Positions 7,639 through 59,745 of a stretch of DNA of 64,000 nucleotides are shown here, one piece after another. The notes under the pieces are model-generated. The model searched no databases. It was not told where the DNA came from and worked only from the letters and a program-made list of their open reading frames with translations. Each line of letters begins with the position of its first letter. The first letter of the stretch is position 1. The DNA comes from Escherichia phage UGJNEcP3. Position numbers and translations under genes: made by a program. The stretch is taken from sequence record OV876907, one strand, 5' to 3'.

Positions 7639-7660
7639 GAACCTTCGGGTTCCTTTTTCG
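7639..7660 (+). terminator. intrinsic terminator hairpin (GGAACC-UUCG-GGUUCC + T-run) after gene 35
   Basis: perfect 6-bp stem with UUCG loop followed by TTTTT. Confidence 0.65.
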
Positions 7661-7712
7661 TTTTCTACGGCCATAAATATATAAAAGGCTATAACTCCCA
7701 AAGGAAACTCAA

Positions 7713-8360
7713 ATGGCAGATTTAAAATTAGGTTCTACAGCAGGAGGTTCGGTATTATGGCACCAAGGTAATTTCCCCTTAACGCCTGTATCAAATGACC
7801 TTCTTTATAAAACATATAAAGTTTACACCGAGTATAATAAACCACAAGCAGTTGATAATGATTTCGTTTCAAAAGCCAACGGCGGTAATTATAAGAACAA
7901 CGTGTATTTTGAAAAAGGTTTGACCTTTAATGATACTAATGGATATGGTATTAAATTAGGAGCAAGAACAGCCGGAGCCCCGTTTACAGCTTCTTTCCGT
8001 ATTAAAGGTGCTTTTGGATACGAAACGGAAGACGGTACCCCGTTTATGATATTTGACCCAAATACAACAGTTGGTGCTAAACGTCTTACCGTAATGGGTG
8101 ATTCATTATTCCGACAAGTATATGATGAATCAGGTCGTGTATTCAGCCCAGGCAACACCCCTACTAAAGCACAAATTGGATTGCCGTTAGTAGATAACGC
8201 AAAACAGGTCCAAATAAATAATACTAATATGCAAACAATGACTGGAGTACTTGCGGCTCCTAACTTCATTTCATTAAATCCGGCCTCTGACGCAGGACAT
8301 GTTCCCCGTTTCGACCAGATTGTTATTAAAGATTCTATCCAAGATTTTGGTTATTATTAA
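7713..8360 (+). CDS. 36: long tail fibre distal connector gp36
   Basis: 215 aa between 35 and 37; size and position as T4 gp36. Confidence 0.8.
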   Translation: MADLKLGSTAGGSVLWHQGNFPLTPVSNDLLYKTYKVYTEYNKPQAVDNDFVSKANGGNYKNNVYFEKGLTFNDTNGYGIKLGARTAGAPFTASFRIKGAFGYETEDGTPFMIFDPNTTVGAKRLTVMGDSLFRQVYDESGRVFSPGNTPTKAQIGLPLVDNAKQVQINNTNMQTMTGVLAAPNFISLNPASDAGHVPRFDQIVIKDSIQDFGYY

Positions 8361-8368
8361 GAGGCATT

Positions 8369-11300
8369 ATGGCTACTTTAAAACAGATACAATTTAAAAG
8401 AAGTAAAGTAGCTGGTGTACGTCCTACGCCAGCGCAGTTGGCTGAAGGCGAGCTGGCTATTAACTTAAAAGACCGTTTGTTATTTACTAAAGATGATACC
8501 GGCGCCATCATCGACCTTGGCTTTGCTAAAGGCGGTAATATTGACGGTAACGTAGTTCATAAAGGAAATTATAATCAAACCGGTGATTATACCTTGAATG
8601 GTACTTTTACCCAAACAGGTGATTTTAATTTAACTGGTATTGCCAGAGTAACCCGTGACATAATTGCGGCAGGTCAAATTATGTCTGAAGGTGGCGAGCT
8701 TATTTCTAAGAGTTCTTCAACTTCTCATTTGAGATTCTTTGATGGTGCATCACGTGAACGTGGTATTATCTTTTCTCCTAATAATGCAGGTTTGACAACT
8801 CAGGTAGTTAATATCCGCGTTCAAGATTATGCTGCAGGAAGTGAAAGCACTTACGCGTTTTCAGGCAACGGCCTATTTACTTCACCTGAAGTATCAGCAT
8901 GGAAATCTATTTCGTCTCCACAAATTCTGACCGATAAAGTTATTACAAATGGTAAGAAAGAAGGTGATTATGATATCTATTCAATGGCCGATAATACTCC
9001 TTTGGCCGAAAGTGAAACAGCAATTAACCACCTACGTGTTATGCGAAATGCGGTAGGAGCTGGTGTATTCCATGAAGTAAAAGATAATGACGGTATCTCA
9101 TGGTATGCAGGCGATGGACTCGATGCATATCTTTGGTCGTTCACCTGGTCCGGTGGATTGAAAGCGGGTCATTCTATTGCTGTCGGTCTTCCGCACGGTT
9201 CTAAAAATTATTCAGAAATGGGGCCTGGCTCGATAGCTTTAGGTGATAACGACACCGGATTAAAATGGCACCAAGATGGTTATTTCCATACAGTAAACAA
9301 TGGGACAAGAACTTTCATCTACGGACCAGAAGAAACGCAAAGCCTTAGAAAAATGGTTATGGGTTATTCTCCGGATGGGATTAATATGACAGTCCCTCCA
9401 ACAGAAAACTATGCCCTGGCAACTGTAGTTACTTACCATGATAATAACGCCTTTGGTGATGGCCAAACTCTTTTAGGATATTATCAAGGTGGTAAGTACC
9501 ATCACTATTTCCGTGGTAAAGGCGCGACGAACATTAACACCGCTGGCGGTTTGTTAGTTACTCCAGGCAATATCGACGTGATTGGCGGTTTAATTAATAT
9601 CGACGGTCGCAGTAATGCTTCAACCTTACTGTTTAGTAGCTATACGTCTGGACAAAGCTCTGTCGATAATATGAATATACGCGTTTGGGGCGATACTTTT
9701 ACTACTGTAGGTGGTACTCGCAAAAACGTAATGGAAATATCTGATGCCACTAGCTGGATGCAATATATTCAACGAACAACTGCAGGTAAAGTCGAATCGG
9801 TTCTAAACGGCACCCAGATTGTTAATGAAAACTTGACCGTAGTAAAAAATGCTACATTTGATGGTACAATCAGCGCAGCAGGTGAAATCGCAACAAATGC
9901 AGTAAATGGCCTTCGTATTTGGAACGATGATTACGGTGCTATTTTCCGTCGTTCAGAAGGAAGTCTTCACATTATTCCTACTGCTTTTGGTGAAGGTAAA
10001 ACCGGAGATATTGGTCCACTTCGTCCATTTAGTATTGCTTTAGATACCGGTAAAGTTGTTATTCCTGACTTGGATTTATCCCATACCACTTTTGCAGAAA
10101 ACGGTTATATTAAATTTGGCGGACACGGCGCTGGTGCAGGCGGATATGATATTCAATACGTCCAAGCAGCTCCTATTTTCCAGGAAATCGATGATGATGC
10201 CGTAAGTAAATATTACCCAATTGTTAAGCAGAAATTCTTACAAGGAAAGGCTGTTTGGTCTTTAGGTACCGAAATTAATTCAGGGACATTTGTTATCCAT
10301 CATTTAAAAGAAGATGGGACCCAGGGCCATACCTCAAGATTTAATGCCGATGGTACAGTTAATTTCCCTGATAACGTGCAGGTTGGCGCTGGTGAAGCTA
10401 CTATTGCTCGTAATGGTAACATCTTCTCTGATATTTGGAAAGTATTTACCTCTGCCGGTGATATAACTAACATTCACGATGCTATTGCCTCTCGTGTTGC
10501 TAAAGAAGGCGACACGATGACTGGAAAATTGACTATTGCCGCTGCGGATGATGCTTTATTGATTAAAGCCCCAAATGCCAATAATAGTTCTCATATCCGT
10601 TCAGAAGTCGCTGGTGCTAATAGCTGGTTTGTTGGTAAAGGCGGTGAAAGTGATACGGTATCTTTTTATAACTACAAAACATCAACCGGTCTAGATTTGA
10701 GTGATAATGGAGTAATTTCATTTAATCCTAAATCATTTAATTTAGCTCAAATGAGTGAAAACCGTCTGTGGATTAATGGAACAAGATGGGTTGCTACAAA
10801 TCCAGGCGCTATTAGCGGACAATTCGCACTTGAGGCTCCTTTATTTGTAGAACACGGTGACCTGAATGGTAACGTTTATTATCCGATTGTTAAAGGCCGA
10901 AGTTCTTCTGCTGGGTTTGGGTACACGTCCTCCGTAGAGCTAGGTACTTTACGTTCAGGTACCGCAGCCTGGGCCACCGGTTGTATAATTGTTCGTTCAG
11001 CTGAAAATACACCAGAACAAGGACATCCTGCCGCGGTTTATCAATTTTTGTCCAACGGGCAGTTTAGTGCTCCCGGAAGAATTGTTTCTGGTTGGGCTGG
11101 TATTGGTGTTGGTGTTGAACCAGCTTGGACCACGCCATGTATTTCTATTGGTGACGCTGATACTGGTATCGTATGGGAATCCGATGGTATCTACAACCTT
11201 TATGCGAATGGACAAGGTGTATTCAGTATTCGTGCTGGACTTGCTCAAACATTCGGTAACGTAGCATTACACGTTAACGCAGGTATGTATGTTCGTGATA

Positions 11301-11647
11301 ACATTGATGTTAACGATGTTTATATCCGTTCTGATATTCGTTGTAAGTCAGAAATTAAGCTTATTAAGAACGCTCAAGAGAAATCTAAACTCTTAGGCGG
11401 CTATACTTATCTGCTTAAAAACTCTGTTACAGACGAAGTTAAACCATCTGCAGGTTTAATTGCTCAGGAAGTTCAAGAAGTATTACCTGAACTTGTTTCT
11501 GAAGATAAAGAGACCGGACTGCTTCGTTTGAACTATAACGGTATTATTGGTTTAAATACAGCTACTATCAACGAGCATACTGACGAAATCAAGGAATTGA
11601 AATCCGAAATTGCTGAGTTGAAAGCATTAATTAAATCATTATTATAA
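8369..11647 (+). CDS. 37: long tail fibre distal subunit gp37 with C-terminal intramolecular-chaperone-like domain
   Basis: 1092 aa; C-terminal ~120 aa ([10 protein letters not shown]...[15 protein letters not shown]...) resembles S74/endosialidase-type autocleaving chaperone domains (memory). Confidence 0.88.
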
Positions 11648-11651
11648 GAAA

Positions 11652-11665
11652 GGGCCTTCGGGCCC
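11652..11665 (+). promoter_or_regulatory. RNA hairpin GGGCC-UUCG-GGCCC between genes 37 and 38
   Basis: perfect stem with UUCG loop directly before the GGAGG SD of gene 38; no T-run. Confidence 0.4.
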
Positions 11666-11676
11666 TGGAGGTTTTT

Positions 11677-12456
11677 ATGGCAGTAGTAGGAATTCCTGGT
11701 TGGATTGGGACTTCGGCCGTCGCTGAAACCGGGCAAAGATGGATGTCGGCCGCTTCGAGGGAACTTCGTTTAGGAAACCCTTCATGGATGTCCCAATTCG
11801 CCGGCCGCTCAAGAGAAATTATTCACACACTTGGAGCAGACCATAACTTTAACGGTCAATGGTTTCGTGACCGTTGTTTTGAAGCCGGTGGTGCTCCTAT
11901 AGTGTTTAATATCACAGGCAACTTAGTATCATATACTAAAGATGTTCCGTTGTTCTTTATGTACGGTGATACCCCTAACGAATATGTTACTTTGAATATT
12001 CATGGTGGCGTTCATATGTGGGGCCGAGGTGGTAATGGTAGCGTAAATGGAAGCCCAGGCACTAATGGTGGCGACGTAATCCAAAATGATATTGGCGGAA
12101 GACTTCGCATTTGGAATTATGGTGTAATAGCCTCCGGTGGTGGTGGAGGTGGTGCAGTATCATTACAGAATAGTTGGCCTGCAAATTCTACCGCAGGTGG
12201 TGGAGGCGGTCGACCATTTGGTCTCGGCGGTGGTGGCGTTAATTGGCCTGGCGGCAATGCTAGTTATGACGGCCCAGGTGGTGGTGGTAATACAAGTCAA
12301 TTTGGCGGTGGTAATGGAGGTGATGCAGGTGGCGCTGGTGGCGACGGATGGGGCAATCACTTATCTAGATCTGGGGGTGGTGCTCCTGGTAGAGCAGTAT
12401 TCGGTTCCTCCCCATCATGGGGTTCTACAGGCACTATCTACGGCTCTTGGTTATAA
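11677..12456 (+). CDS. 38: T2-type glycine-rich receptor-binding adhesin gp38
   Basis: 259 aa; N-terminus [24 protein letters not shown] and polyglycine blocks as in T2/T6-type gp38 (memory). Confidence 0.85.
12127..12360 (+). repeat. GGT-rich polyglycine-coding low-complexity region inside gene 38
   Basis: runs of GGTGGTGG encoding GGGG(G) blocks separating short variable segments. Confidence 0.8.
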
Positions 12457-12472
12457 TACGAAAGTATTAAAT

Positions 12473-12480
12473 TATAAATA
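12473..12480 (+). promoter_or_regulatory. T4-type late promoter TATAAATA upstream of holin gene t
   Basis: exact TATAAATA ~20 bp upstream of t ATG. Confidence 0.7.
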
Positions 12481-12498
12481 TCTTTAAAGGAGAAAAGT

Positions 12499-13152
12499 AT
12501 GGAACCAAAAGTAGGATTTTCATTATCAGACCTACTTTTTGGACTTCTTGATAGAATTTTTAAAGATACTTCTTCCGGGAAAGTAGTTTTTTCCCGGGTC
12601 CTAGTCGTAATATTATTGTTCTTTATGGCATTAATTTGGTATAAAGGCGAGCATATTCTAAACTTTTACAAAGAGACAACTTATGCCTCTTATACTGAAA
12701 TGATTAGACAAGACCAGGACAATAGATTTAAAATTGCGGCTATCGAGCAGCTCCGAATAGTGCATTCTTCTTCAGGCGCAGACTTCACAGCAATATATTC
12801 TTTTAGACCAACCAACATGAATTATTTTGTGGACATGGTGGCTTATGAGGGTAAATTACCGGAAACGGTAGACGCAAAAAATACGGGAGGATTTCCGATT
12901 GACAAAACGTCAGTAGAGTATATGGCGGGAGTTAACGGGAACTATTTTGAATCAAGTACAGAAACTGTGTTCCTTCCTACAAAGAAGAAAACCCAATTCA
13001 CGTATATGTTCTCATGCCCGTTTTTTAATTTGGATAACATCTATGCCGGCTCGATATCATTATATTGGTATGATATCAAACCGGATTTAGGATTTCCTAG
13101 ACTTTCGTCTATGTGTGGTCAGGCCGGGAGGACATTAGGTCGAACTCGTTAA
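12499..13152 (+). CDS. t: holin T
   Basis: 217 aa; SxSDLLFGLLDRxFKD, one TM segment, C-terminal YAGxIxxYWY as in T4 holin (memory). Confidence 0.9.
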   Translation: MEPKVGFSLSDLLFGLLDRIFKDTSSGKVVFSRVLVVILLFFMALIWYKGEHILNFYKETTYASYTEMIRQDQDNRFKIAAIEQLRIVHSSSGADFTAIYSFRPTNMNYFVDMVAYEGKLPETVDAKNTGGFPIDKTSVEYMAGVNGNYFESSTETVFLPTKKKTQFTYMFSCPFFNLDNIYAGSISLYWYDIKPDLGFPRLSSMCGQAGRTLGRTR

Positions 13153-14837: not shown

Positions 14838-15473
14838 TCAGATAATTGCGTTGGTTACGGTTTTGATAACTTCAGATGATACGTTTTGGAAGTCGATATA
14901 AGTATTCTTACCACCAGTCTTAATCTTAACATCAAGATTCAAGGAAGTAAACACTTGTTTTTCTTTATCAGTCATATTATAACCGAAAATACGCATCATT
15001 CCATCACGACGGACTTCGATTTGACGAATACCATTGGTACGTTTAGCGAATCGAACTTCAAGGTTGCTACGGTTTTCAGCAATTTCACGAATCTCGATAC
15101 GGTCTTCTAATAAAGCTTTAACTTCATCAGCCAGTGTTACCATTTCAGGAGTAACACCACGTGAACTGCGCGTTTTACGTTTTTCCAACATCTCTGGAGC
15201 ATTTTCAGAAGCGAACAGGTCTGCAGCTTTTTGAACGAGGTCCATTGCTTCACCTGTAGCCACTAAACCATCACCGGATTTTTCGATGAATCCTTTCTTA
15301 ATCAATACACCGATGTTAGAGTTAACTACCGCAGCACTAAATTGCTCATTCAGGGCTTCACGGACTTCGCCTGAAGTGATGAAGTTATGCTTGATGATAT
15401 GTACTAAGATTGAAGCAGTTTTTTCATTCAGGGCGTCTTCAGAAGCTTTGATGATATAAGTAATTTTAGACAT
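14838..15473 (-). CDS. motA: middle-transcription activator MotA
   Basis: 211 aa; MSKxTYIIKAS..LNEKTA...SNIGVLIKKG...KSGDGL matches T4 MotA (memory). Confidence 0.9.
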   Translation of the reverse strand: MSKITYIIKASEDALNEKTASILVHIIKHNFITSGEVREALNEQFSAAVVNSNIGVLIKKGFIEKSGDGLVATGEAMDLVQKAADLFASENAPEMLEKRKTRSSRGVTPEMVTLADEVKALLEDRIEIREIAENRSNLEVRFAKRTNGIRQIEVRRDGMMRIFGYNMTDKEKQVFTSLNLDVKIKTGGKNTYIDFQNVSSEVIKTVTNAII

Positions 15474-15504
15474 TTTGTATCTCCGATAACCATTTATTTG
15501 ATAG

Positions 15505-15540
15505 GTCTATAGTATCATGTTTAAAGCAGATGTAAACACT
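15505..15540 (-). promoter_or_regulatory. early promoter for motA
   Basis: GTTTAC(15532-15537), 17 bp, caTGaTACTAT, then AGACCTATCAA box. Confidence 0.6.
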
Positions 15541-15554: not shown

Positions 15555-15576
15555 AAAAAAGGAACCCGAAGGTTCC
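15555..15576 (-). terminator. intrinsic terminator hairpin (UUCG loop + T-run)
   Basis: GGAACC-UUCG-GGUUCC then TTTTTT on minus strand, right after the micro-ORF stop. Confidence 0.6.
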
Positions 15577-15681
15577 TTACTTTTTAAAGTGAGCTGCTAT
15601 TAAACCTATAGCTAGGCCTGTGGCCAGGCCTAGGATAATAGCAAAGATACAGAGTAACAAGAACTCGACTCCAAGGCTCAT
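15577..15681 (-). CDS. 34-aa hydrophobic micro-protein coupled to gene 52
   Basis: ATG overlaps gene 52 stop (ATGA); MSLGVEFLLLCIFAIILGLATGLAIGLIAAHFKK is one TM helix. Confidence 0.45.
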   Translation of the reverse strand: MSLGVEFLLLCIFAIILGLATGLAIGLIAAHFKK

Positions 15682-17061: not shown

Positions 17062-17202
17062 TTACCATACTAGTGAATGAATAGCCATAATAACATCGGA
17101 AATAAAAAGCACAACTTGGATAAGTCCGAACATTACTCCATAATACAGTGCTACTAATAAAGCAGCAAGGGCTACTGAGTAGCCCAAGATTTTCTTAATC
17201 AT
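17062..17202 (-). CDS. 46-aa membrane micro-protein (52.1 position)
   Basis: ATG 17200-17202 overlapping ac-like stop; hydrophobic. Confidence 0.45.
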   Translation of the reverse strand: MIKKILGYSVALAALLVALYYGVMFGLIQVVLFISDVIMAIHSLVW

Positions 17203-17366: not shown

Positions 17367-17444
17367 TTAGCGTCCGAAGACGCCTTTAGTTTTAAGATTG
17401 TTACGATAGAACTGCATCACATGCTCGTTATGGAAATTACTCAT
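17367..17444 (-). CDS. stp: Stp peptide (25 aa)
   Basis: ATG overlaps ndd stop (TAATG); [25 protein letters not shown] matches T4 Stp as recalled. Confidence 0.75.
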
Positions 17445-17893: not shown

Positions 17894-17942
17894 ATCAATT
17901 TCCTCAGTAGATTAATGTTTTGTTATCCGGTCAACGAGAACC

Positions 17943-17971
17943 ATTATAACATGATTCTCGAGGTTGTAAAC
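17943..17971 (-). promoter_or_regulatory. early promoter for ndd
   Basis: GTTTAC(17966-17971), 17 bp, caTGtTATAAT; inverted repeat CGAGAA/TTCTCG flanks -10. Confidence 0.55.
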
Positions 17972-18659: not shown

Positions 18660-18679
18660 AATCATCTCCATTAGTTGAT

Positions 18680-18716
18680 AGGTCTATAGTATCATGATTA
18701 ATGGAGATGTATACCG
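18680..18716 (-). promoter_or_regulatory. early promoter (GTATAC -35 variant)
   Basis: GTATAC, 17 bp, caTGaTACTAT, AGACCTATCAACTAA box. Confidence 0.55.
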
Positions 18717-19355: not shown

Positions 19356-19369
19356 AATATTTTCCTCTC

Positions 19370-19408
19370 GTGTAGTTGATAGGAAGATAGTAACACCATC
19401 CATGGCGT
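19370..19408 (-). promoter_or_regulatory. early promoter
   Basis: GTTTAC(19400-19405), 18 bp, gTGtTACTAT, CTTCCTATCAACTAC box. Confidence 0.55.
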
Positions 19409-19431
19409 ATGTAAACACTTATTTTAAAAAA

Positions 19432-20013
19432 TTATAAGGCGAGATACCAGCCGTTGTAATTGCTCTTACGGACTAGCTTTGTGATGGCTTCTCTGTCGCC
19501 AGAGAACTTAGGAGTGAACAGGACGTCGCCTGCCTCATTTACTGAAGTGTCGAATATAATTATACAGTCTGCAACTTTATGATTCAAGAGCGGTCCCAGG
19601 TTAATCCCTGTTCCATAAGGGAAGTCACCGGAGTATCCTGTAGTACAGGAAATCCACTTAGAATCTGATTGATGGGTCTTGACCTCTACACGTAGTCCAC
19701 AATACATAGGATGAGCTAAAACATCCCATGCATAGGTATAAGGGTCGTCATGGTCTTCCAGACCACTGTTAACATATCCTTTCAACCAATCAGCCACCAT
19801 ATACTCGGCATACGTTGCAATGACACACCGAGTCAATACTTCTTTCTTATCTTGGGACGGGTCTTGGCTTAAGGAATACAGTACGGTATCCTTAATCTTA
19901 ACCTTCATTTCGCCTGTTAAATCAGATGTCTTCAGGGTAAATGTCGGCATCGCTGCCAATCGGAGTAGTCCCGGGTTCGTCTTCACCATAAATGCCTCGA
20001 ATATGAAGTTCAC
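19432..20013 (-). CDS. hypothetical protein at the denB position (start uncertain)
   Basis: 193-aa ORF; upstream part overlaps next ORF so true start is probably an internal ATG (19950 or 19908); DenB identity unverified. Confidence 0.45.
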   Translation of the reverse strand: MNFIFEAFMVKTNPGLLRLAAMPTFTLKTSDLTGEMKVKIKDTVLYSLSQDPSQDKKEVLTRCVIATYAEYMVADWLKGYVNSGLEDHDDPYTYAWDVLAHPMYCGLRVEVKTHQSDSKWISCTTGYSGDFPYGTGINLGPLLNHKVADCIIIFDTSVNEAGDVLFTPKFSGDREAITKLVRKSNYNGWYLAL

Positions 20014-20420: not shown

Positions 20421-20458
20421 AATTTCCTCTTAGGAGGCCGAAGCCTCCGTTTATTGAT

Positions 20459-24236: not shown

Positions 24237-24309
24237 ATTCTCACCTCTTAGAGAATCGTATCATACTTTTAATCAGTTGTAAACCCCGAAAAGGGCCTTG
24301 CGGCCCTTA

Positions 24310-24510
24310 TTAGTTACTTGAATCGACCTTATAGACTTGCCCGCGGGTTTGGTAAACTTCGCCGTCCCATGTTTCAACTGTGATAGTAACGTACTCTGCA
24401 AAAAGAGGACGTGTATCTGTCCAGAGATAACCATATTCACCTGTGACGAGCGTAACCCAGTACTTTCTCATAAAGTCTCCTTTTGTATGGCACCAATTAG
24501 TACCATACAT
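24310..24510 (-). CDS. hypothetical protein (66 aa)
   Basis: ORF between gene 39 stop and a GNRA hairpin (24295-24308). Confidence 0.5.
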   Translation of the reverse strand: MYGTNWCHTKGDFMRKYWVTLVTGEYGYLWTDTRPLFAEYVTITVETWDGEVYQTRGQVYKVDSSN

Positions 24511-24515
24511 ATTTA

Positions 24516-26385: not shown

Positions 26386-26399
26386 AAGGGCCGAAGCCC

Positions 26400-28058: not shown

Positions 28059-28100
28059 AATTTTTCTCTCTTGGTTAAAGGATTATAATCCATAAGAGCC

Positions 28101-28129
28101 ATTATAACATGGCTCTCGATAAAGTAAAC
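28101..28129 (-). promoter_or_regulatory. early promoter
   Basis: GTTTAC(28124-28129), 17 bp, caTGtTATAAT. Confidence 0.5.
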
Positions 28130-28131
28130 TA

Positions 28132-40302: not shown

Positions 40303-40323
40303 TTGAATCTCCTCGTTAGTTGA

Positions 40324-40363
40324 TAGGTCTATAGTATCACTACCATAGACCGTTGTAAACACT
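40324..40363 (-). promoter_or_regulatory. early promoter for sp
   Basis: GTTTAC(40355-40360), 18 bp, gTGaTACTAT, AGACCTATCAACTAACGAGGAG. Confidence 0.55.
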
Positions 40364-41007: not shown

Positions 41008-41337
41008 TTAGATTTCCTCACAGAAGGCCCATTCAGCATGATAAACCGTAGCGCCTTTAGTATCATTTAAACAAACCACATCTACCGGAGCAATTACACG
41101 ATAAAGACGGGGTTCTCCTCCCACTGAACGAGCTGCTCGTCCAGCATAAATCTTAGCCAAACCGATATCTTCAGTAAAGAACACACGATTTAGGTTTTTC
41201 TTACGACCGGTTTCAGACAGAACTCCTGTTTCCTCGGGAGGACAAAGCATATTACCGATATTAGCAACACTGCAACTTCCGTGATAATACACTTTATATT
41301 CTGTTTTACAGTCGATGGTTTTCATTTTGTTCTCCAA
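41008..41337 (-). CDS. hypothetical protein (109 aa), extra relative to T4 order
   Basis: lies between dmd and 41; motifs YYHGS, NRVFFTED, VYHAEW. Confidence 0.6.
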   Translation of the reverse strand: MENKMKTIDCKTEYKVYYHGSCSVANIGNMLCPPEETGVLSETGRKKNLNRVFFTEDIGLAKIYAGRAARSVGGEPRLYRVIAPVDVVCLNDTKGATVYHAEWAFCEEI

Positions 41338-41342
41338 GTTGA

Positions 41343-41381
41343 TAGGTCTATAGTATCATGCCTATAGGAGATGTAAACCCT
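41343..41381 (-). promoter_or_regulatory. early promoter
   Basis: GTTTAC(41373-41378), 17 bp, caTGaTACTAT, AGACCTATCAACTTGGAG. Confidence 0.55.
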
Positions 41382-41387: not shown

Positions 41388-41408
41388 AAAAAAAGGAGCC
41401 GAAGCTCC
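41388..41408 (-). terminator. intrinsic terminator after gene 41
   Basis: minus-sense GGAGC-UUCG-GCUCC hairpin followed by TTTTTTT. Confidence 0.65.
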
Positions 41409-42848
41409 TTAAAATTTGATAGATGCTGCTAAATCGTCCAAATCACTTCTATTAACACGCGTCTGTCGATTGACCTCGGCTTGTCGATTCATCTCACCTG
41501 TAGCCTCACGAACGGTGTTCACTGGACCCGGGTTGGAATCGTCTTCAACTTCATACCAACGTTGATTTCCTTTCTTAACACCAATCTTAAATTTGTTGTA
41601 GTAGCTCTTATCGCCATAACGAGATTTAAGCTGCTTAACCATCTGCATACCCATCTGGGCAAACTCTTCTGTCTCGACCACACCTAACATGAAGTCTGCA
41701 GTATGTGCAATACCAAAGGATTCAGCAATATCGGCCATATCGATTTCGGCTGCAACGTTCGCACCACGAGTAGTCTGGGCTGCAGTCCACAACAATAATT
41801 TCTTCTCTACTGCAAGTCCACGTAGTTCTTCGGCAACCATCTTAATCAATCCGTAACTGTTTTCAGAGAAAACTTTCGTACGAGACGATGCACAGATGGC
41901 CAAGTAGTCGACGATAACGACCTGTGGGACAAAGTTTTGTTTGAGCTTATATTCGTTTAATAATGCACGGAATGTATCGGCATTCGCACCACCAGTAGGA
42001 TACTGTTTAATCTTTAAACGACCTAAGGTAGCAGTTGAACGCCATTTATCCATCTTAGCTTTATATTCAGGCCATGAGACGTGACCATCATCGATATCGT
42101 CCAGTGACACGTCCAGAAGGTTGGCATCGATACGCTTAGCACATACTTCCTCTGCCATCTCCATGGAGATATAAAGAACATCGTATCCGGATTGAAGGTA
42201 ATCAGCAGCCAATGAACAAAGACCAAGAGACTTACCTACGTTTGTTCCTGCCAACAATACGTTTTCAGTACCAAACTCGGCACCACCCTTGGTAATCTTA
42301 TTCAGAATATTAAGACGGAATGGAACCTTACGTGCTTTATCGGAATAACTTTTGAATCGTTCTTCATAGTCATCCATCCAGTCATGACCTAATTCAGAAT
42401 CGAAACAAATCGATAATGCATCACGCATGATATCCGGAATAGCACCAATACCTGGAAGTTTTCTATTTTGTTGCTCAACCGGAAGGTCGGCATTAGTTTG
42501 GATTTCAATGATTTTTGAAGTTGCATTATACATCGCTGCTTTCTGAACGTATTTCTCCGTCTCTTTAACCAACCATTCTTGGTCTTCAGGTCCGGCATTC
42601 AGCGAACTTAAAAGCTCTTTAGCGCCTTGGTGTTCAACTTCTGAAAGCGTACTGTTATCTAACGCAATACTCAATGCATTCTTAGAAGGCACTGCATTAT
42701 ATTCATTGACATGTTTTTTAATTTCTTTGAAAAGGGTCTTTGCAGGACCCTGGTCAAAATATGAATCATTCATATAAGGCCAAACCTTAGTGAAATAATC
42801 ACTATTGCCTAGCAGTTGAGCCAAAATAGTTTCTACCACTTCCACCAC
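41409..42848 (-). CDS. 41: replicative DnaB-like helicase gp41
   Basis: 479 aa; Walker A GTNVGKS, RecA-like core; T4 gp41 size and position. Confidence 0.9.
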   Translation of the reverse strand: MVEVVETILAQLLGNSDYFTKVWPYMNDSYFDQGPAKTLFKEIKKHVNEYNAVPSKNALSIALDNSTLSEVEHQGAKELLSSLNAGPEDQEWLVKETEKYVQKAAMYNATSKIIEIQTNADLPVEQQNRKLPGIGAIPDIMRDALSICFDSELGHDWMDDYEERFKSYSDKARKVPFRLNILNKITKGGAEFGTENVLLAGTNVGKSLGLCSLAADYLQSGYDVLYISMEMAEEVCAKRIDANLLDVSLDDIDDGHVSWPEYKAKMDKWRSTATLGRLKIKQYPTGGANADTFRALLNEYKLKQNFVPQVVIVDYLAICASSRTKVFSENSYGLIKMVAEELRGLAVEKKLLLWTAAQTTRGANVAAEIDMADIAESFGIAHTADFMLGVVETEEFAQMGMQMVKQLKSRYGDKSYYNKFKIGVKKGNQRWYEVEDDSNPGPVNTVREATGEMNRQAEVNRQTRVNRSDLDDLAASIKF

Positions 42849-49559: not shown

Positions 49560-52270
49560 TAAAAGTCAAACATGTCAAATAATGTTGCTTTTTTCTCGTA
49601 GTCGATTTTAGCAGACTCGGTGAAACCGGTAAGAGGTTTGATAAAGGTCTTTTGGAACAATACGTTGTAGTCCATCCAACGGAGGACTTGGTCACGAATC
49701 TGAACTGGAAGTTCAATACCTGATGGCCATGCCATACAAGCTTCACCGAACGGGTTGCCTTCTTTAAGTGGAAGTACATATACCTTTTCACCGTCGACGA
49801 TACGTGGCATAGTCAAATCACCAGCAGAAGCACGCATGTAAGCTAAGCAACCTTTGATGTGATACGGGCATTTAGAACCAGGGAATCCACCTTCATTATA
49901 TTTCTCGATGTTGTTAGCACTGGATACTGCTGCAATGCTTACATAGTTTAGTTCGTTAAATTCCTTATTAAACTGTTTGAAATATTCTTGCAAAGAGGCC
50001 TCGCCTTCCTGAAGCATACGACGGATACATTCTTTCAGAGCTTTCTGAACTGCTTTAGGTGTACTTGATTTCTGAGTTTCGAGACCCATGATTTTCAAGT
50101 GTGGTTCAGCATAACGAGTACCTTCCATGTCCCAAACGTTCAGTGCATAACGTTTCTTGCCTGTCCAGAATCCACCAAGACCTTTAGAACCAAGTGGAGG
50201 TCCTGCGATAGCTTCTCGGTCCATGAACATCAAGTGCTGTTTGTTGTTCATGTATTCACACATCTCACGGAAGCCTGCATCAATAGCAGGTTCCATACGT
50301 TCACGTGCAAATTTATCTAAGAAGTCGACCCAGTGGTTAGTATCACGGAATTTTTCTTCGCCAACTTTATTGATGATGGCATCTGCCTTAACATAAATGG
50401 AGTCAGTATCACCATAGAGCACGAACTTCTGGTTTTCAGTCTTGCACACTCTATTCAGATATTCGTTAACCTTACGTTCAATCCATTGGAGGGCCATTTG
50501 ACCAAACAGTGTGATTGCAGTTGCGTTCCTGAGGTCATAATAACGGAACCATACGTTACCAAGTGCACCATAAAGGGAGTTGATAAGCAACTTACGGTTA
50601 ATCTGAGCAGTGTTACCTGCAACTTCAGTGAGCTCGGCTTTCTTCAACATTTCTCTTAAAGAAGGCCCTGACAGTGCTTTAATCTGGGCTTTGATTTCGT
50701 CAGAGAAGTCAAAACGATAATCGATATCTAGTGGACTATCAACTGAGAGATTAGGATTTTCCAATGCTTCTTTAATTAACTCACCATTACGTTGAGCTGC
50801 AAGCATGTAACCTTTATGTTCTTTACGCTGCAAGAATACCTTGGTGATTTCTGTCGGAATCACACCTTCACGGTCTTTATAATACATCATGCCGTTAGGA
50901 GAGCAACTGTAGGTGTCGCTAGGACGCTGAGCAGTTCCGGCAATATATTCATGTATCGGTGCGTTGGCGAATGTCCCTGCGATGGTCTCTGGGCTTATAT
51001 TCACTTGCCGAATGATACTCGGGTACAGAGATGTAAGGTCAAAACTCATTACATATTTGTAAGCGTTAGGAATAGGTTCCTTAACGAAAGCACCAGGATA
51101 AGGTTGGACCACGTGTGAACGACCCTGTGGAATTACCTTGCCTTGTTCTTTAAGACTATTAAAGATAATAGCGTCCCAAGTCTTAATTGGACTGAACACC
51201 GACTGAATCTGCATCTTGGCATAATAACCCATGTCCAAACTCAGAAGAATGAACTGACGTTTCATATCAATCTGCACTACACGATATACGTCGATAATGT
51301 TATAGGAAATATATCGTTGGTGGTTCGTCTCACGTAACTTAGAGATTGGACCATCATATTTCAACTTACCTACTTTCAATTCATATTCAGAAACATAATC
51401 CAGAGAATAAGAAGGCTGGTTGGTAAAGCTGAATTTTTTATACAGGTCGATATAATCCAGAACAGAGATACCGAACAGTGTAATAATTTCACGAGCACCG
51501 TACATGTTCTCAATAACTTTAACACGAGTTTTACGATGCGGGCTTAATCGCTTAGCAGTGTTCTCACCGAACAGATTTTTCAGACGGTTATAAACGTACG
51601 GCACGTCAAATGACTCAACGTTCCACCCAGTCAAAATCACAGGAGTTTTCTGTTGCCAGAAATTCAGGTACTCAAGCATCATTTCTTCTTCAGAATTAAA
51701 CGAAAGATAAACGATTTTGTCAATGATTTCCTGTGGAACTTCGTCACCACCTTCGTCTTGGAGTTTCTCAGCGATTTTAATCGACCACTCTTCAACAGTA
51801 CCATAAGGCGAAACTAAAAGGTCGAATACATAGAATTTATCGTCAATCGAGTCGTAGTGGGTAATGGCATCGATAGGATGTTTAGCCTGAGCTGGTTCAG
51901 GGAATCCATCAGGAGATGTTACCTCGATGTCGAAGTTAGCAATACGAATCTTAGAAGAATCATATTTGATTTCTTTACGATAGGTATCAGACAAATAGGC
52001 TAATTTATAGTCGTCCATACCCAGGGCTTCGAGACCCATATCGTCCATACGTTTCATCCATTGGGATGCATCACGCATAGAGTCGAATTCTTTCTTAACA
52101 CAACCCTTACCATAGATATCAATGTATTTTACGGCTTGCTCTGGATTGGCATGCATAAACATTGTAGGCTTGTATGGAACTTCACGACTACGTTCGTTAC
52201 CATTTTTATCGATGTAACGTTCGAGAATATTATCACCGATTTGTTCGACTGTCAAATAGAATTCTTGCAT
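49559..52270 (-). CDS. 43: DNA polymerase gp43 (family B, with 3'-5' exonuclease)
   Basis: 903 aa from ATG 52268-52270 (AAGGAAA SD; track start 52330 is TTG); Exo I FDIEV, motif A DLTSLYPSI, motif C YGDTDS; N-terminus closely resembles RB69 gp43 (memory). Confidence 0.93.
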   Translation of the reverse strand: MQEFYLTVEQIGDNILERYIDKNGNERSREVPYKPTMFMHANPEQAVKYIDIYGKGCVKKEFDSMRDASQWMKRMDDMGLEALGMDDYKLAYLSDTYRKEIKYDSSKIRIANFDIEVTSPDGFPEPAQAKHPIDAITHYDSIDDKFYVFDLLVSPYGTVEEWSIKIAEKLQDEGGDEVPQEIIDKIVYLSFNSEEEMMLEYLNFWQQKTPVILTGWNVESFDVPYVYNRLKNLFGENTAKRLSPHRKTRVKVIENMYGAREIITLFGISVLDYIDLYKKFSFTNQPSYSLDYVSEYELKVGKLKYDGPISKLRETNHQRYISYNIIDVYRVVQIDMKRQFILLSLDMGYYAKMQIQSVFSPIKTWDAIIFNSLKEQGKVIPQGRSHVVQPYPGAFVKEPIPNAYKYVMSFDLTSLYPSIIRQVNISPETIAGTFANAPIHEYIAGTAQRPSDTYSCSPNGMMYYKDREGVIPTEITKVFLQRKEHKGYMLAAQRNGELIKEALENPNLSVDSPLDIDYRFDFSDEIKAQIKALSGPSLREMLKKAELTEVAGNTAQINRKLLINSLYGALGNVWFRYYDLRNATAITLFGQMALQWIERKVNEYLNRVCKTENQKFVLYGDTDSIYVKADAIINKVGEEKFRDTNHWVDFLDKFARERMEPAIDAGFREMCEYMNNKQHLMFMDREAIAGPPLGSKGLGGFWTGKKRYALNVWDMEGTRYAEPHLKIMGLETQKSSTPKAVQKALKECIRRMLQEGEASLQEYFKQFNKEFNELNYVSIAAVSSANNIEKYNEGGFPGSKCPYHIKGCLAYMRASAGDLTMPRIVDGEKVYVLPLKEGNPFGEACMAWPSGIELPVQIRDQVLRWMDYNVLFQKTFIKPLTGFTESAKIDYEKKATLFDMFDF

Positions 52271-52330
52271 TTCATTTCCTTTATAGACGAGTGATTGTCT
52301 TTTGTTTGTTGATGAATCATTATACTCCAA

Positions 52331-52349
52331 AAGGGACCGAAGTCCCTTT
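52331..52349 (-). promoter_or_regulatory. RNA hairpin upstream of gene 43 (possible translational operator)
   Basis: minus-sense AAGGGAC-UUCG-GUCCCUU ~60 nt upstream of gene 43 ATG. Confidence 0.4.
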
Positions 52350-54460: not shown

Positions 54461-54521
54461 ATTAATTTCCTCAGGTTTGTTTTTACATTATACTCCAAGG
54501 GAGGATATTCCTCCCTATGCT

Positions 54522-58271: not shown

Positions 58272-58521
58272 CGTTATAAGCATCCTTGATGCATGATTCA
58301 GCCATATGAATTAATGTTTCTGGAGTATCATCTACCATTACATTAAAGCTAAATTCTACAGCCCAATCGGTAGCAACATAAACTTTAATAAGCTCGCCGG
58401 TATCACGAGTGCTCACGGCTTCAAACCAGAACTTAATTGTACTAGGTTGACCATCATCATCAATAACTATACAGTCGTGTTCCAGTTCAAGTCCCGATTT
58501 TTTGAATTCATCTAAAGTCAT
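58258..58521 (-). CDS. hypothetical protein (46.1 position)
   Basis: 87 aa between 47 and 46. Confidence 0.55.
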   Translation of the reverse strand: MTLDEFKKSGLELEHDCIVIDDDGQPSTIKFWFEAVSTRDTGELIKVYVATDWAVEFSFNVMVDDTPETLIHMAESCIKDAYNDEDF

Positions 58522-59540
58522 CGTGTAACCTCATTATAAAGTTGTGCAGCCATAGTCTTAAGGGCTTTAACATCGGCTTCAGTGTGGCCATCAGGAAGGG
58601 CATCGATATAATCATACATCATATCCAAGAGGGATTTAACTTCGTCTTCCTCTTCAGAATCATCAATATCAACACTATTATCTACCTTAGACACAATACG
58701 TAAAGAGTGAACAACCTTTTCAAGCTCTGATTCGAACTTAGTAAGACCGTCATCGATTTTATCGACTATAACACGAACTGCGATATTTGTAAAATCTTTG
58801 TAATCGATAGTCTCGTTAGGATAATGAATCTTACGATGCCAACAGGTTTCATTAATGATGAAATCCATTTTATGAGTTTCGGTATCGAAAATCCAGAAAC
58901 CACGAGGGTCGTTCTCATCGCCTGCAGTAAGGGTCCATGGCGTACCAATGTACTTGACGTTTGCTGCATCAGAAATGGTGTGGAAGTGGCCAGACCATAC
59001 TTGCTTATACTTCTTAAGGAAATCAGGTTCTAAACCATGTGATTTCATTCCTTTATAGAAATAGAAACCATTTAATTCCCAGTGGCCAATACAGAAATCT
59101 GCCGTGGTATTTTTGATATGGTCCATGATATCAGTGGTGTTTTCTTCACACATCCATGGAATCAAATCAATTTCGGTGCCATCAAAGTTAACCGTAGTAG
59201 GTTTCTCAATAACCTTGATATGGTCATATTTACCCAGAACTTCAGAAGCTGCGTTCGGCGTCAGGGTATTTTTGTAGTGGGCATCATGGTTACCAACGAC
59301 CGTATACATGGTAATGCCACTTTCTTTAAGCAAATCAGAGATTTCGCGAGCGAATTCCATACACTTATGGGTAATTGCTTTACGAACGTCAAAGATATCA
59401 CCGTATTGAATCCACACGGTAATACCATTTGCTTTAGAATAATTGATAGCGTCTTGGATACCTTGACGTTGGATATTTTGTACCCACACATCATCGGCCT
59501 TCACTCCAAGGTGCCAGTCACCTGTGTTTAATATTTTCAT
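58518..59540 (-). CDS. 47: recombination nuclease subunit gp47 (Mre11/SbcD-like)
   Basis: 340 aa from MKILNTGDWH ATG; phosphoesterase motifs GDWHLG, GDIFD, GNHD, GHWE, GHFH. Confidence 0.9.
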   Translation of the reverse strand: MKILNTGDWHLGVKADDVWVQNIQRQGIQDAINYSKANGITVWIQYGDIFDVRKAITHKCMEFAREISDLLKESGITMYTVVGNHDAHYKNTLTPNAASEVLGKYDHIKVIEKPTTVNFDGTEIDLIPWMCEENTTDIMDHIKNTTADFCIGHWELNGFYFYKGMKSHGLEPDFLKKYKQVWSGHFHTISDAANVKYIGTPWTLTAGDENDPRGFWIFDTETHKMDFIINETCWHRKIHYPNETIDYKDFTNIAVRVIVDKIDDGLTKFESELEKVVHSLRIVSKVDNSVDIDDSEEEDEVKSLLDMMYDYIDALPDGHTEADVKALKTMAAQLYNEVTR

Positions 59541-59680
59541 AAGCCGAGCACCGTTATCGCAATGCAAAATAAAATTATTGAGATGAACCCATCAGGAGTA
59601 GAAAAGAATCCTATCCAACAGGCTCGTGTGAATGTGTAGAATGCCATGAATAACACGACATATCCTAAAAGTAATTCCAT
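59537..59680 (-). CDS. 47-aa membrane micro-protein coupled to gene 47
   Basis: GAGGAG SD; MELLLGYVVLFMAFYTFTRACWIGFFSTPDGFISIILFCIAITVLGL; stop overlaps gene 47 ATG (ATGA). Confidence 0.45.
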   Translation of the reverse strand: MELLLGYVVLFMAFYTFTRACWIGFFSTPDGFISIILFCIAITVLGL

Positions 59681-59722
59681 ATGTTCTCCTCAGTTGGTTC
59701 ATTTTATCATCCGAATATAAAG

Positions 59723-59745
59723 CAAAAAAGGAGCCTAAGCTCCTT
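59723..59745 (-). terminator. hairpin + T-run terminator
   Basis: minus-sense AGGAGC-UUAG-GCUCCU followed by TTTTTT. Confidence 0.5.

Follow-up and report, generated by a model that had tools for sequence, protein, structure and literature searches.

Tetraloop hairpins at gene ends

The window analysed here is a 64,000-nucleotide stretch of Escherichia phage UGJNEcP3 (OV876907), mapped with the annotated genes of Escherichia phage UGJNEcP4 (Dhakavirus, T4-like), which is 100% identical to it. Its genes include a gp35-like gene, gp37 and gene 38, motA, rIIB, gene 39, the gp41 helicase gene, genes 45 and 44, regA and gene 43. A sequence-only reading had placed at least ten stable hairpins between genes, and all ten that it listed were present, with offsets of 0–4 nt and on the transcribed strand as claimed. 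Each has a perfect Watson–Crick stem of 6–9 bp and a 4-nt loop, with predicted stabilities of −8.8 to −12.6 kcal/mol. The loops had been described as UUCG or GNRA, which was correct for eight UUCG loops and one GCAA loop (24291), but the hairpin at 59727 has a UUAG loop and falls into neither class. Five hairpins begin within the preceding stop codon (UAA-GG...). The reading had overlooked two more UUCG hairpins on the sense strand, 17370–17383 on the minus strand and the intragenic 6653–6670 on the plus strand, as well as two gene-end hairpins without a tetraloop (24484–24509 and 54499–54515, both minus strand).

The window contained 17 hairpins in which a stem of 6 bp or longer, with no fewer than 4 G-C pairs, carries a 4-nt loop, compared with 1.8 ± 1.3 expected from 100 dinucleotide-preserving shuffles. 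Restricting the count to TTCG/CGAA loops gave 9 against 0.01 in the same shuffles. The hairpins are real and their excess over chance is large. All ten UUCG hairpins carry UUCG rather than CGAA on the sense strand, and the hexamer CTTCGG is flanked by complementary 4-nt sequences in 10 of its 20 sense copies and in none of its 22 antisense copies. The same gene junctions carry hairpins in dozens of T4-like contigs, where the stems differ yet remain complementary and the loops are mostly UUCG. Among 382 distinct strong tetraloop hairpins from related loci, 159 had TTCG on the gene strand versus 18 with CGAA.

These observations bear on the idea that the hairpins act mainly as DNA, either as recombination substrates for modular gene shuffling or as protein-binding palindromes, with RNA folding incidental. 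Recombination has been proposed between the promoter-early stem-loop cassettes (PeSLs) of T4-type phages (Arbiol et al. 2010; Comeau et al. 2014; PMC2839356, PMC4122927). In the window the modules of hairpin plus U-run and promoter form repeat families (D1–D3 and D7), and the 20-mers at 7636–7655 and 15559–15578 are identical. A DNA palindrome is strand-symmetric, however, which does not fit the sense-only UUCG loops or the absence of pairing flanks around antisense CTTCGG. In addition, the stems tolerate G-U pairs, which form only in the sense-strand RNA, and hairpins also occur at unshuffled core-gene junctions such as 35/36, 37/38, 41 and regA/43. We consider a mainly DNA-level role improbable; recombination may be an extra consequence of the hairpins rather than an alternative to their action in RNA. 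Each would fold in the nascent transcript as a short, very stable hairpin at a gene's 3′ end.

Hairpins followed by U-runs precede predicted promoters

Several stems lie directly 5′ of a U-run and resemble terminators, in line with the earlier proposal for part of the set. These hairpins, the promoter elements next to them and one further gene-end hairpin, at the 45/44 junction, are:

7636–7655, plus strand: UUCG hairpin, 8 bp, −10.9 kcal/mol, overlapping the stop codon of the gp35-like gene; terminator type
15559–15578, minus strand: UUCG hairpin overlapping the stop of a 34-aa ORF, UUUUUU next; PeSL-like cassette
15536–15509, minus strand: early promoter GTTTACA-16-TACTAT, 3′ of the 15559 hairpin and upstream of motA
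24291–24308, minus strand: GCAA (GNRA) hairpin, 7 bp, −12.5 kcal/mol, 1 nt past the stop of a small ORF
24283–24255, minus strand: early promoter GTTTACA-17-TACGAT, 3′ of the 24291 hairpin and UUUUCGGG
26386–26401, minus strand: UUCG hairpin, 6 bp, −8.8 kcal/mol, overlapping a stop codon
26385–26376, minus strand: MotA box UUAUGCUUUA, continuous with the U-run of the 26386 hairpin
26363–26358, minus strand: TAAUAU, 12 nt past the MotA box; middle promoter for gene 39
35834–35855, minus strand: UUCG hairpin, 9 bp, −12.6 kcal/mol, followed by UUUUUUCGUUUUAAGG
41393–41410, minus strand: UUCG hairpin, 7 bp, −10.0 kcal/mol, overlapping the gp41 helicase stop and followed by UUUUUUUGUUUUAAGG
41377–41350, minus strand: early promoter GTTTACA-16-TACTAT, 3′ of the 41393 hairpin and UUUUUUUGUUUUAAGG
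54499–54515, minus strand: hairpin GGGAGGA-AUA-UCCUCCC at the junction of genes 45 and 44, with UUGGAGUAUAAU next
59727–59746, minus strand: UUAG hairpin, 8 bp, −11.1 kcal/mol, with the annotated stop codon in its loop
about 59727–59718, minus strand: MotA box UUUUGCUUUA, continuous with the U-run of the 59727 hairpin
59706–59701, minus strand: TAAAAU, 11 nt past the MotA box; middle promoter for the gene 47 region

In five hairpins the 8 nt past the stem include 5 U's or more, and a consensus terminator scan calls the same five. With a U-run directly past the stem, the hairpins at 7636, 15559, 35834, 41393 and 59727 would each close a transcription unit, working as an intrinsic terminator or attenuator. 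This role would be weaker at 24291, 26386 and 52330, which have only 4 U's each and may be weak terminators.

Each U-run hairpin would also be coupled to the promoter of the next unit within 10–40 nt. At 15559, 24291, 35834 and 41393 this would be an early promoter of the GTTTAC/TAnnnT type; that of the 35834 hairpin, GTTTAC ... TGTTAAGAT, lies 3′ of UUUUUUCGUUUUAAGG. The hairpins at 26386 and 59727 would be paired with MotA-box middle promoters. In T4 the middle promoters include P39 and P47, and the MotA-box consensus has a spacing of 12 ± 1 (PMC2988021). Coupling would be to a late-like promoter at 7636, where the hairpin is followed by UUUUUCGUUUU and then by the late-promoter-like CATAAATA, and to the gene 43 promoter, P43, at 52330.

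Relatives retain these arrangements. The position of the 7636 hairpin is kept while its stems vary, with the exact sequence TATAAATA downstream; close relatives share the stem of the 24291 hairpin with either a GCAA or a UUCG loop. At the position of 35834 a UUCG hairpin is present in more than 30 relatives, with an early promoter or a MotA box next. The equivalent of the 59727 hairpin in T4-like relatives has a UUCG loop and is followed by TGCT(T/A)T boxes. At the 45/44 junction T4 has a UUCG hairpin and TATAAT; the 54499 hairpin of the window had been missed because its loop is 3 nt.

Hairpins without U-runs adjoin Shine–Dalgarno sequences

Other hairpins had been said to lack a T-run and to sit just before a Shine–Dalgarno sequence (SD). 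This holds for 11651, before gene 38, and likewise for 20433 and 17370. The hairpins of this kind, together with the intragenic one, are:

11651–11666, plus strand: UUCG hairpin, 6 bp, −11.2 kcal/mol, 3 nt past the gp37 stop
17370–17383, minus strand: UUCG hairpin, 5 bp, −6.7 kcal/mol, within the final codons of a 25-aa ORF that is not annotated (..KGVFGR*)
20433–20448, minus strand: UUCG hairpin, 6 bp, −10.8 kcal/mol, 10 nt past the rIIB stop
24484–24509, minus strand: imperfect 11-bp hairpin with G-U pairs and a UAAU loop, after gene 39 (topoisomerase)
6653–6670, plus strand: intragenic UUCG hairpin, 7 bp, −12.4 kcal/mol, in the gp35-like gene (codons ..DGDFGPQ..)

The 11651 hairpin is flush with the GGAGG SD of gene 38, and its stem has no adjoining U-run, as expected of a read-through type. 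In relatives it is again flush with GGAGG, with different stems (GAGGGGC/GCCCCTT) and UUCG, UUAG or CUCG loops. The sequences 3′ of the 17370 and 20433 hairpins, UAAUGAGGAAAAUAUG and UAAGAGGAAAUUAUG respectively, contain no U-run; there the next ORF or gene has its SD and start. Directly past the 24484–24509 hairpin the next ORF has its SD, AAAAGGAG, and the intergenic region 24472–24515 has a minimum free energy fold of −16.4 kcal/mol. Relatives carry at least six different stems at the rIIB-distal site, all at the same place and with a UUCG loop; a U-run is present in some and absent in others.

That every hairpin is simply an intrinsic terminator, with no other role, is very unlikely. The five with U-runs that are called by the consensus scan do fit that description. 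Against it, the hairpins at 11651, 17370, 20433 and 24484–24509 have only 1–3 U's past the stem and the SD of the downstream gene within 0–12 nt, and the rIIB-distal hairpin exists in relatives both with and without a U-run. No promoter of the downstream gene's own was found in the gap after any of these four hairpins. The scan itself showed no clear enrichment over shuffles (24 versus 14.4 ± 4.1, 15 versus 13.8 ± 3.2 and 10 versus 13.1 ± 3.6), and therefore the specific signal is the tetraloop hairpin, not terminator-like sites.

The four hairpins flush with the next SD would instead be read through. Most likely they would block 3′-to-5′ exonucleases, which protects the upstream cistron after cleavage, and would keep the adjacent ribosome-binding site unpaired. 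Termination efficiency, read-through and RNA stabilization are all properties that we infer for the hairpins of the window from sequence.

The gene 43 leader contains two separate hairpins

T4 gp43 represses its own translation, and the hairpin listed at 52331 had been proposed as a possible part of the equivalent operator. The leader contains the following elements:

52330–52349, minus strand: UUCG hairpin, 8 bp, −10.9 kcal/mol, UUUU next; upstream of the P43 −10 element
52319–52324, minus strand: TATAAT, −10 element of the gene 43 promoter, within GGAGTATAAT; kept in nearly all T4-like loci
52285–52300, minus strand: operator homologue hairpin AGAC-AAUCACUC-GUCU, 4-bp stem and 8-nt loop, recognized by loop and covariation
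52268–52284, minus strand: single-stranded 3′ part of the operator, AUAAAGGAAAUGAAAUG, directly 3′ of the operator hairpin
52281–52277 and 52270–52268, minus strand: SD AAGGA and gp43 AUG, within AUAAAGGAAAUGAAAUG

The 52330 hairpin begins 2 nt past the stop of a 71-aa ORF located after regA, and 59 nt separate its end from the gp43 AUG. It had been described as lacking a T-run and sitting just before an SD; in fact a short UUUU is present, and the adjoining GGAG is not the gene 43 SD. The hairpin is followed by GGAGTATAAT, a motif that T4-like phages retain also where the hairpin itself has another sequence; this motif is a promoter −10 element and not an SD. The T4 P43 start is at 29933 (PMC2988021 Table 1), 5 nt past the same hexamer and between the UUCG hairpin and the operator, so a transcript from the gene's own promoter lacks the UUCG hairpin. 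By analogy, the start in the window is predicted near C52314. No good MotA box was found in the Dhakavirus P43 region; its promoter class and activity would likewise follow T4 only by analogy.

In both loci an upstream stop codon is followed by the GC-rich UUCG hairpin, by U-rich sequence and by GGAGTATAAT; about 10–25 nt further come the 8-nt-loop hairpin and AUAAA..AAGGA..AUG, and the distance from the end of the UUCG hairpin to the gene 43 AUG is 58 nt in T4 and 59 nt in the window. This layout identifies the 52330 hairpin as the orthologue of the T4 regA-43 intercistronic UUCG hairpin. The loci differ in the extra 71-aa ORF between regA and the hairpin, in the distance from operator loop to −10 element (13 nt here, 15 nt in T4) and in the operator stem (4 bp, AGAC/GUCU, here; 5 bp, AGCCU/GGGCU, closed by U-G, in T4).

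The gp43 operator consists of a hairpin with an eight-nucleotide loop and sequence overlapping the ribosome-binding site (PMC3014915; PMC4661202). The loop in the window, AAUCACUC, matches that of T4, AAUAACUC, at 7 of 8 positions, and the AUAAA..AGGA..AUG flank is common to T4 and relatives. In Serratia phage PS2 the SELEX "major variant" of the operator loop occurs naturally.

Alignments A1 and A2 had the hairpins as hand-set anchors, which biases their pairing percentages in favour of the structure: 92.5% of cells were paired in the operator hairpin (16 distinct sequences, 4/5 pairs changed on both sides) and 100% in the terminator hairpin (6/7 pairs changed on both sides). None of 500 shuffles paired as well as the operator stem, and slid controls reached 22–45%. 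An unguided alignment with fewer sequences (A3) gave the same two helices, and unguided RNAalifold returned exactly two hairpins with the invariant AGTATAAT between them, in agreement with the single-sequence centroid fold.

That the polymerase binds the UUCG hairpin at 52330–52349 as part of its operator is extremely unlikely. In favour of the idea, this hairpin is a stable RNA structure upstream of gene 43, read-through transcripts from upstream promoters contain it, and the operator of T4 gp43 does include a hairpin (PMC3014915). Its position argues against such a role: the upstream ORF stops just before it, a conserved −10 element lies downstream, and the AUG is 59 nt away. The mapped T4 start downstream of its counterpart argues against it too. 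Its loop is the 4-nt UUCG of nine other gene-end hairpins in the window rather than the 8-nt AAUNACUC that defines the operator. In relatives its stem and loop vary freely (UACG, UCCG, GAAA, hexaloops), while the operator loop is near-constant. Moreover, a complete operator homologue adjoining the SD is already present at 52300–52268.

The 52330 hairpin would end 45-44-62-regA transcripts upstream of the gene 43 promoter start, and autogenous control by gp43 would use the 52300–52285 hairpin with the adjacent SD and AUG. The polymerase of UGJNEcP3 would accordingly be expected to bind 52300–52268, with operator function not guaranteed because some T4-related polymerases do not autoregulate (PMC3014915).

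Relation to known phage and bacterial hairpins

The C(UUCG)G hairpins of T4 mRNA were reportedly described by Tuerk et al. (1988, PNAS 85:1364). In T4 roughly half of the sense copies fold into hairpins, compared with none of the antisense copies (PMC7165471). The window shows the same sense-only pattern, with the CUUCGG hexamer on short GC stems; there is no difference of substance, the phages being of another genus in the same subfamily.

Terminator activity of PeSL cassettes has been shown experimentally (PMC2839356; PMC4122927). The window cassettes resemble them in combining a stable stem-loop with an SD and a sigma-70-like early promoter whose upstream region is AT-rich, and in occurring intergenically in many copies per genome; as for terminator or attenuator activity, they are likened to PeSLs from sequence. 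In RB49 and phi1 PeSLs the stem-loop is often found over the −35 and −10 elements or between them, whereas in the window the tetraloop hairpin comes before the promoter. The window also has a second set of stem-loops, which span the −10 element. Unlike PeSLs, the window hairpins are also found at middle and late promoters and at core-gene junctions.

With bacterial intrinsic (Rho-independent) terminators the window shares a GC-rich hairpin and U-tract downstream of a stop codon. Its stems are, however, unusually short (6–9 bp) and lean on tetraloop stability, several hairpins lack a U-tract and several overlap the stop codon.

Very probably, then, the hairpins are the Dhakavirus counterparts of the T4 intercistronic C(UUCG)G-type hairpins, acting in RNA as U-run terminators and as read-through elements flush with an SD, with the gp43 operator a separate structure. 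They are real and probably functional, but of an already known kind, the gene-end punctuation of T4-like phages.

Gene map and relatives

A 3.5-kb polymerase-gene query matched Escherichia phage UGJNEcP4 (OV877765.1; Straboviridae, Tevenvirinae, Dhakavirus) with 100% identity, and Bp7, JS10, IME08 and other Dhakavirus genomes with 94-97%. OV877765.1 is identical to the entire window, across the linear ends of the record, and its annotation supplied the gene map. An identical 127-bp copy lies at both ends of OV877765.1 (1-127 and 170464-170590); at 19363-19489 the window crosses the junction with a single copy. Five IMG/VR scans with gp43, gp38, gp39, gp41 and gp47 queries gave about 170 loci from T4-like genomes for comparison.

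Genes and small ORFs of the window
2455-13152, + strand: tail-fibre genes 34-38 and holin (annotation)
Outside 2455-13152, - strand: early/middle genes motA, 52, rIIA/B, 39, dda, 61, 41, uvsX, 43, regA, 62, 44, 45, 46, 47 and 55 (annotation)
14838-15473: motA homologue (annotated)
52270, - strand: annotated gp43 start (OV877765.1)
59537-59680, - strand: membrane-like ORF of 47 aa, unannotated in OV877765.1, overlapping the gp47 start by ATGA and kept in many relatives
17062-17202, - strand: membrane-like ORF of 46 aa, unannotated in OV877765.1
17367-17444, - strand: ORF of 25 aa, unannotated in OV877765.1, terminating in the 17370 hairpin

Tetraloop hairpins at gene ends

All ten tetraloop hairpins listed by the sequence-only reading (7636, 11651, 15559, 20433, 24291, 26386, 35834, 41393, 52330 and 59727, each named by its first coordinate) were found, with perfect 6-9 bp stems, 4-nt loops and predicted stabilities of -8.8 to -12.6 kcal/mol. 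Its description of the loops as UUCG or GNRA held for eight UUCG loops and one GCAA on the transcribed strand and failed at 59727, where the loop is UUAG and contains the annotated stop codon. That list omitted UUCG hairpins on the sense strand at 17370-17383 and, within a gene, at 6653-6670, as well as hairpins at gene ends whose loops differ, at 24484-24509 and 54499-54515. A further candidate, 17169-17185 (-), was dropped as a gene-end hairpin because it lies within the unannotated 46-aa ORF.

Compared with 100 dinucleotide-preserving shuffles, strong tetraloop hairpins were in clear excess (17 observed, 1.8±1.3 expected), as were strong hairpins with a TTCG/CGAA loop (9 observed, 0.01 expected). 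CUUCGG flanked by at least four complementary nucleotides occurred ten times, on short, GC-rich stems of 5-9 bp; eight of these sites are intergenic by the annotation, one falls in the final codons of the unannotated 25-aa ORF and one is inside a gene. Nearest-neighbour prediction places the stability of the UUCG hairpins at -6.7 to -12.6 kcal/mol. Complementary flanks accompanied 10 of 20 sense-strand copies of CTTCGG and 0 of 22 antisense copies, and the T4 genome shows the same asymmetry (PMC7165471). This strand bias, together with the G-U pairs tolerated in relatives, shows that it is the RNA, not a DNA palindrome, that is under selection. A gap of 0-10 nt separates most hairpins from the preceding stop codon, and five start within the stop codon (UAA-GG...). 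Searched against Rfam at gathering thresholds, the whole window gave no hit.

In the relatives, the same junctions between genes carry hairpins; their stems vary in sequence yet remain complementary, and UUCG predominates among their loops. The rIIB-distal stems read GGAGGC, GGGGC, AAGGGC, GGGGAC, GGGAC or GCCCTC, with a UUCG loop in all, and more than 30 variants follow the ORF at 35860, each succeeded by an early promoter or a MotA box. In 382 distinct strong tetraloop hairpins from the related loci the gene-strand loop was TTCG in 159, GAAA in 27 and CGAA in 18; the next commonest loops (UUAG, UUUG, UACG and UCCG) are one-step neighbours of UUCG. Such recurrence indicates that the hairpins are an old, maintained feature of the subfamily of which individual copies turn over. 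Hairpin sequences are also shared or exchanged between sites, since one identical 20-mer, AAGGAACCUUCGGGUUCCUU, forms 7636-7655 (+) and 15559-15578 (-) on opposite strands 8 kb apart and is found at the 35835 site in relatives.

The intragenic UUCG hairpin 6653-6670 (+) in the gp35-like tail-fibre gene has 7 bp and a predicted stability of -12.4 kcal/mol. One Dhakavirus relative carries two compensating changes (GGGAAC..GTTCCC vs GGGGAC..GTCCCC), with two amino-acid replacements as a consequence (GDFGP to GNFGS). In other relatives the loop has changed synonymously to UUUG, and more distant phages lack the hairpin.

Hairpins followed by a U-run and a promoter

At least five U in the 8 nt directly 3′ of the stem, our threshold for a U-tract, follow 7636, 15559, 26386, 35834, 41393 and 59727. 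Both 24291 and 52330 have three, below the threshold, but 4-U runs span their stem ends; 11651, 17370 and 20433 fall short of five. A literature search for transcript-end data on T4-like phages, including T4 Term-seq, found none.

One layout (class 1) consists of hairpin, U-run and promoter. Early promoters of the form GTTTAC-16/18 nt-TAnnnT with a TG lie downstream of 15559, 24291, 35834 and 41393, where a stable stem-loop, a sigma-70-like early promoter and a Shine-Dalgarno sequence (SD) share one intergenic region, as in a promoter-early stem-loop (PeSL) cassette. The motifs also recur within the genome, as PeSL elements do: there are 4-8 copies of the promoter families D1-D3, D5 and D6, and 4 of family D7, which combines hairpin and U-run. 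The early promoters belong to a repeat family with at least eight members (GTTTAC, ~17 nt, GATACTATAGACCTATCAAC) and a conserved initial transcribed sequence, ..CCTATCAAC...

Copies of the early-promoter family
15494-15537, 18671-18714, 29199-29242, 32555-32598, 40316-40359, 41335-41378, 63571-63616 and others, - strand

In several copies the arms of a stem-loop flank the -10 element (for example 17894-17970, 28059-28131 and 40303-40362), resembling the PeSL arrangement in RB49 and phi1. That promoter modules form repeat families in the window fits the PeSL cassettes of T4-type phages, whose stem-loops have been shown to terminate transcription (PMC2839356; PMC4122927). Gene content beside some hairpins differs among relatives.

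Middle promoters adjoin two other hairpins. A MotA box is fused to the U-run 3′ of 26386, UUAUGCUUUA-12-TAAUAU (DNA TTATGCTTTA-12-TAATAT), and another to that 3′ of 59727, UUUUGCUUUA-11-TAAAAU (DNA TTTTGCTTTA-11-TAAAAT). Both agree in sequence and spacing with the MotA box consensus, (a/t)(a/t)(a/t)TGCTTtA at 12±1 bp upstream of a TAnnnT -10 element (PMC2988021); the T4 counterparts of these promoters are P39 and P47, respectively. The 7636 hairpin is followed by the late-promoter-like CATAAATA, and relatives carry the exact TATAAATA at that site. At the junction of genes 45 and 44, 54499-54515 (-) reads GGGAGGA-AUA-UCCUCCC and is followed by UUGGAGUAUAAU, the same motif as 3′ of the 52330 hairpin (related locus compared: L037, about 7870-7915). 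T4 has a UUCG hairpin and TATAAT at this junction, yet the T4 middle-promoter table lists no P44.

Hairpins flush with a Shine-Dalgarno sequence

In the second layout (class 2) a hairpin without a U-run is flush with the SD of the next gene, as at 11651, 20433, 17370 and the imperfect hairpin 24484-24509. The 11651 site reads GGCCCU-GGAGG-UUUUU-AUG, the AUG being that of gene 38, and 20433 reads GCCUCC-UAAGAGGAAAUUAUG.

Tuerk and colleagues are said to have found UUCG hairpins exceptionally stable in 1988; in the T4-type C(UUCG)G hairpins such stability shows as reverse-transcriptase stops. The same property is described for them in later work (PMC7165471). What the sequences establish is that the structures exist, exceed chance expectation, are specific to one strand, are conserved and are homologous in layout to those of T4. 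Hairpins with a U-run would end or attenuate transcription units and be paired with the promoter of the next unit. Those that lack one would be read through, and may protect the 3′ end of the upstream cistron or insulate the neighbouring ribosome-binding site.

Two hairpins in the gene 43 leader

The gene 43 leader (-), treated as a third class, reads ...GAAAUUUAA GC AAAGGGAC-UUCG-GUCCCUUU UGGAGUAUAAU GAUUCAUCAACAAACAAA in its 5′ part and continues AGAC-AAUCACUC-GUCU AUAAAGGAAAUGAA AUG. The UUCG hairpin (52349-52330) begins 2 nt 3′ of the stop codon of a 71-aa ORF downstream of regA. T4 and 34 related loci show the same order of elements: upstream stop, GC hairpin, U-rich stretch, (G)GAGTATAAT, short spacer, 8-nt-loop hairpin, then AUAAA..AGGA..AUG. 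In T4 the leader is AAGGGGC-UUCG-GCCCCUU AUUUGGAGUAUAAU AUAUCAAG AGCCU-AAUAACUC-GGGCU AUAAACUAAGGAAUAUCUAUG. Folding of the leader had been suggested as a check by the sequence-only reading. RNAalifold, given an unguided MAFFT alignment of nine leaders, predicted exactly two helices, the UUCG hairpin and a second one just 5′ of the gene 43 SD, and the single-sequence centroid fold contained the same two.

The UUCG hairpin had been proposed as part of the operator through which gp43 would repress its own translation. Its properties argue against this: the loop is the 4-nt UUCG and not an 8-nt loop related to the T4 operator loop AAUAACUC, and the hairpin ends 59 nt before the AUG, upstream of a conserved TATAAT. 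The start of the T4 middle promoter P43, 29933 (PMC2988021, Table 1), lies downstream of the equivalent hairpin, 5 nt past TATAAT and between the two hairpins, so gene 43 transcripts from their own promoter would lack the UUCG hairpin. In a hand-anchored alignment, which leans to the structure, this hairpin was 100% paired with six of seven pairs changed on both sides. Its loop varied among relatives (UUCG, UACG, UCCG, GAAA and longer loops), as expected of a generic terminator.

The GGAG beside the 52330 hairpin is not an SD; it is GTAG or AGAG in relatives while TATAAT is invariant. A 22-codon upstream ORF at 52255-52320 (-; ATG at 52320, GGAG-4 nt-ATG), spanning the operator homologue and the gp43 start, is probably not a gene, because its ATG is lacking in close relatives (TATAATT in L007, TATAATAAG in L008) and its GGAG is GTAG or AGAG in others.

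As RNA, 52330-52349 is the probable terminator and 3′ stabiliser of the 45-44-62-regA transcripts. It is improbable, on our estimate, that it serves a second time, as DNA, as the MotA box of P43. The loop-proximal ACTTC lies at -31 to -27, in MotA-box register with 13-bp spacing to TATAAT at 52324-52319, and an ACTT-variant box centre is also seen in T4 P46. In T4, the GCTT of the equivalent hairpin occupies -31 to -28 relative to the mapped start of P43, and it is the only box available there that contains CTT. Against dual use, relatives vary in the spacing from loop to -10 element (13-15 nt), and in more distant phages the MotA box is a separate element. If dual use were true, a single short palindrome would close one transcription unit and also nucleate MotA/AsiA-dependent initiation of the following one.

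A homologue of the T4 gp43 operator

The hairpin at 52300-52285 (-) is the operator homologue. Its loop, AAUCACUC, is identical to T4 AAUAACUC at seven of eight positions, and it ends 14 nt before the gene 43 AUG with the SD AAGGA in between. In T4-type phages gp43 binds an operator that consists of an 8-nt-loop hairpin and sequence overlapping the ribosome-binding site (PMC3014915; PMC4661202). Across 16 distinct sequences the five-pair stem was 92.5% paired with four pairs changed on both sides, figures that, like those for the UUCG hairpin, lean to the structure because the alignments were anchored by hand on the hairpins; the unguided leader alignment provides an independent check. None of 500 shuffles was as good, and sliding the 3′ partner reduced pairing to 22-45%. 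A loose pattern search of the whole window found no other AAUNACUC-loop hairpin next to an SD, and nothing relevant came from a literature search with the loop sequences themselves. From the homology, translation of gp43 in this phage would be repressed by gp43 itself via 52300-52268, although autoregulation is lacking in some T4-related polymerases (PMC3014915).

Serratia phage PS2 (at about 30.4 kb in NC_024121; L035, about 1440-1460) has GUCC-AGCAACCU-GGAC at the gene 43 operator position, and the hairpin of Serratia phage Muldoon (L031) is identical but for one additional G. The PS2 loop differs from T4 AAUAACUC at four of eight positions and has a -CAAC- core. We take its exact 8-mer to be the ‘major variant’ of Tuerk and Gold (1990), the first SELEX on T4 gp43. 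Four changes in eight (PMC4661202) and a -CAAC- core (PMC3014915) are the features given for the SELEX major variant, and their presence in the PS2 loop supports this identification. A 2010 review had asked whether any natural phage has the major-variant loop (PMC3014915). An exact-pattern IMG/VR scan for the PS2-type operator returned 50 stretches, of which only two, PS2 and Muldoon, were in T4-like genomes; the remainder lay on unrelated contigs of 4-80 kb.

Implications

The main finding is classical T4 biology rediscovered in another genus. It introduces no new principle: descriptions of UUCG gene-end hairpins, of terminator-promoter cassettes and of the gp43 operator go back to 1988-2010. 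It will not surprise a specialist, and it makes no open question newly testable. The Serratia phage PS2 operator, a by-product, answers the question that the T4 community put in print in 2010. For annotation, the likely gp43 autoregulatory site of Dhakavirus genomes can now be placed at 52300-52268, and about a dozen predicted transcript boundaries and promoter cassettes, unannotated in the public record, are flagged. The comparative data show that, across several genera, selection on RNA pairing maintains the hairpins.
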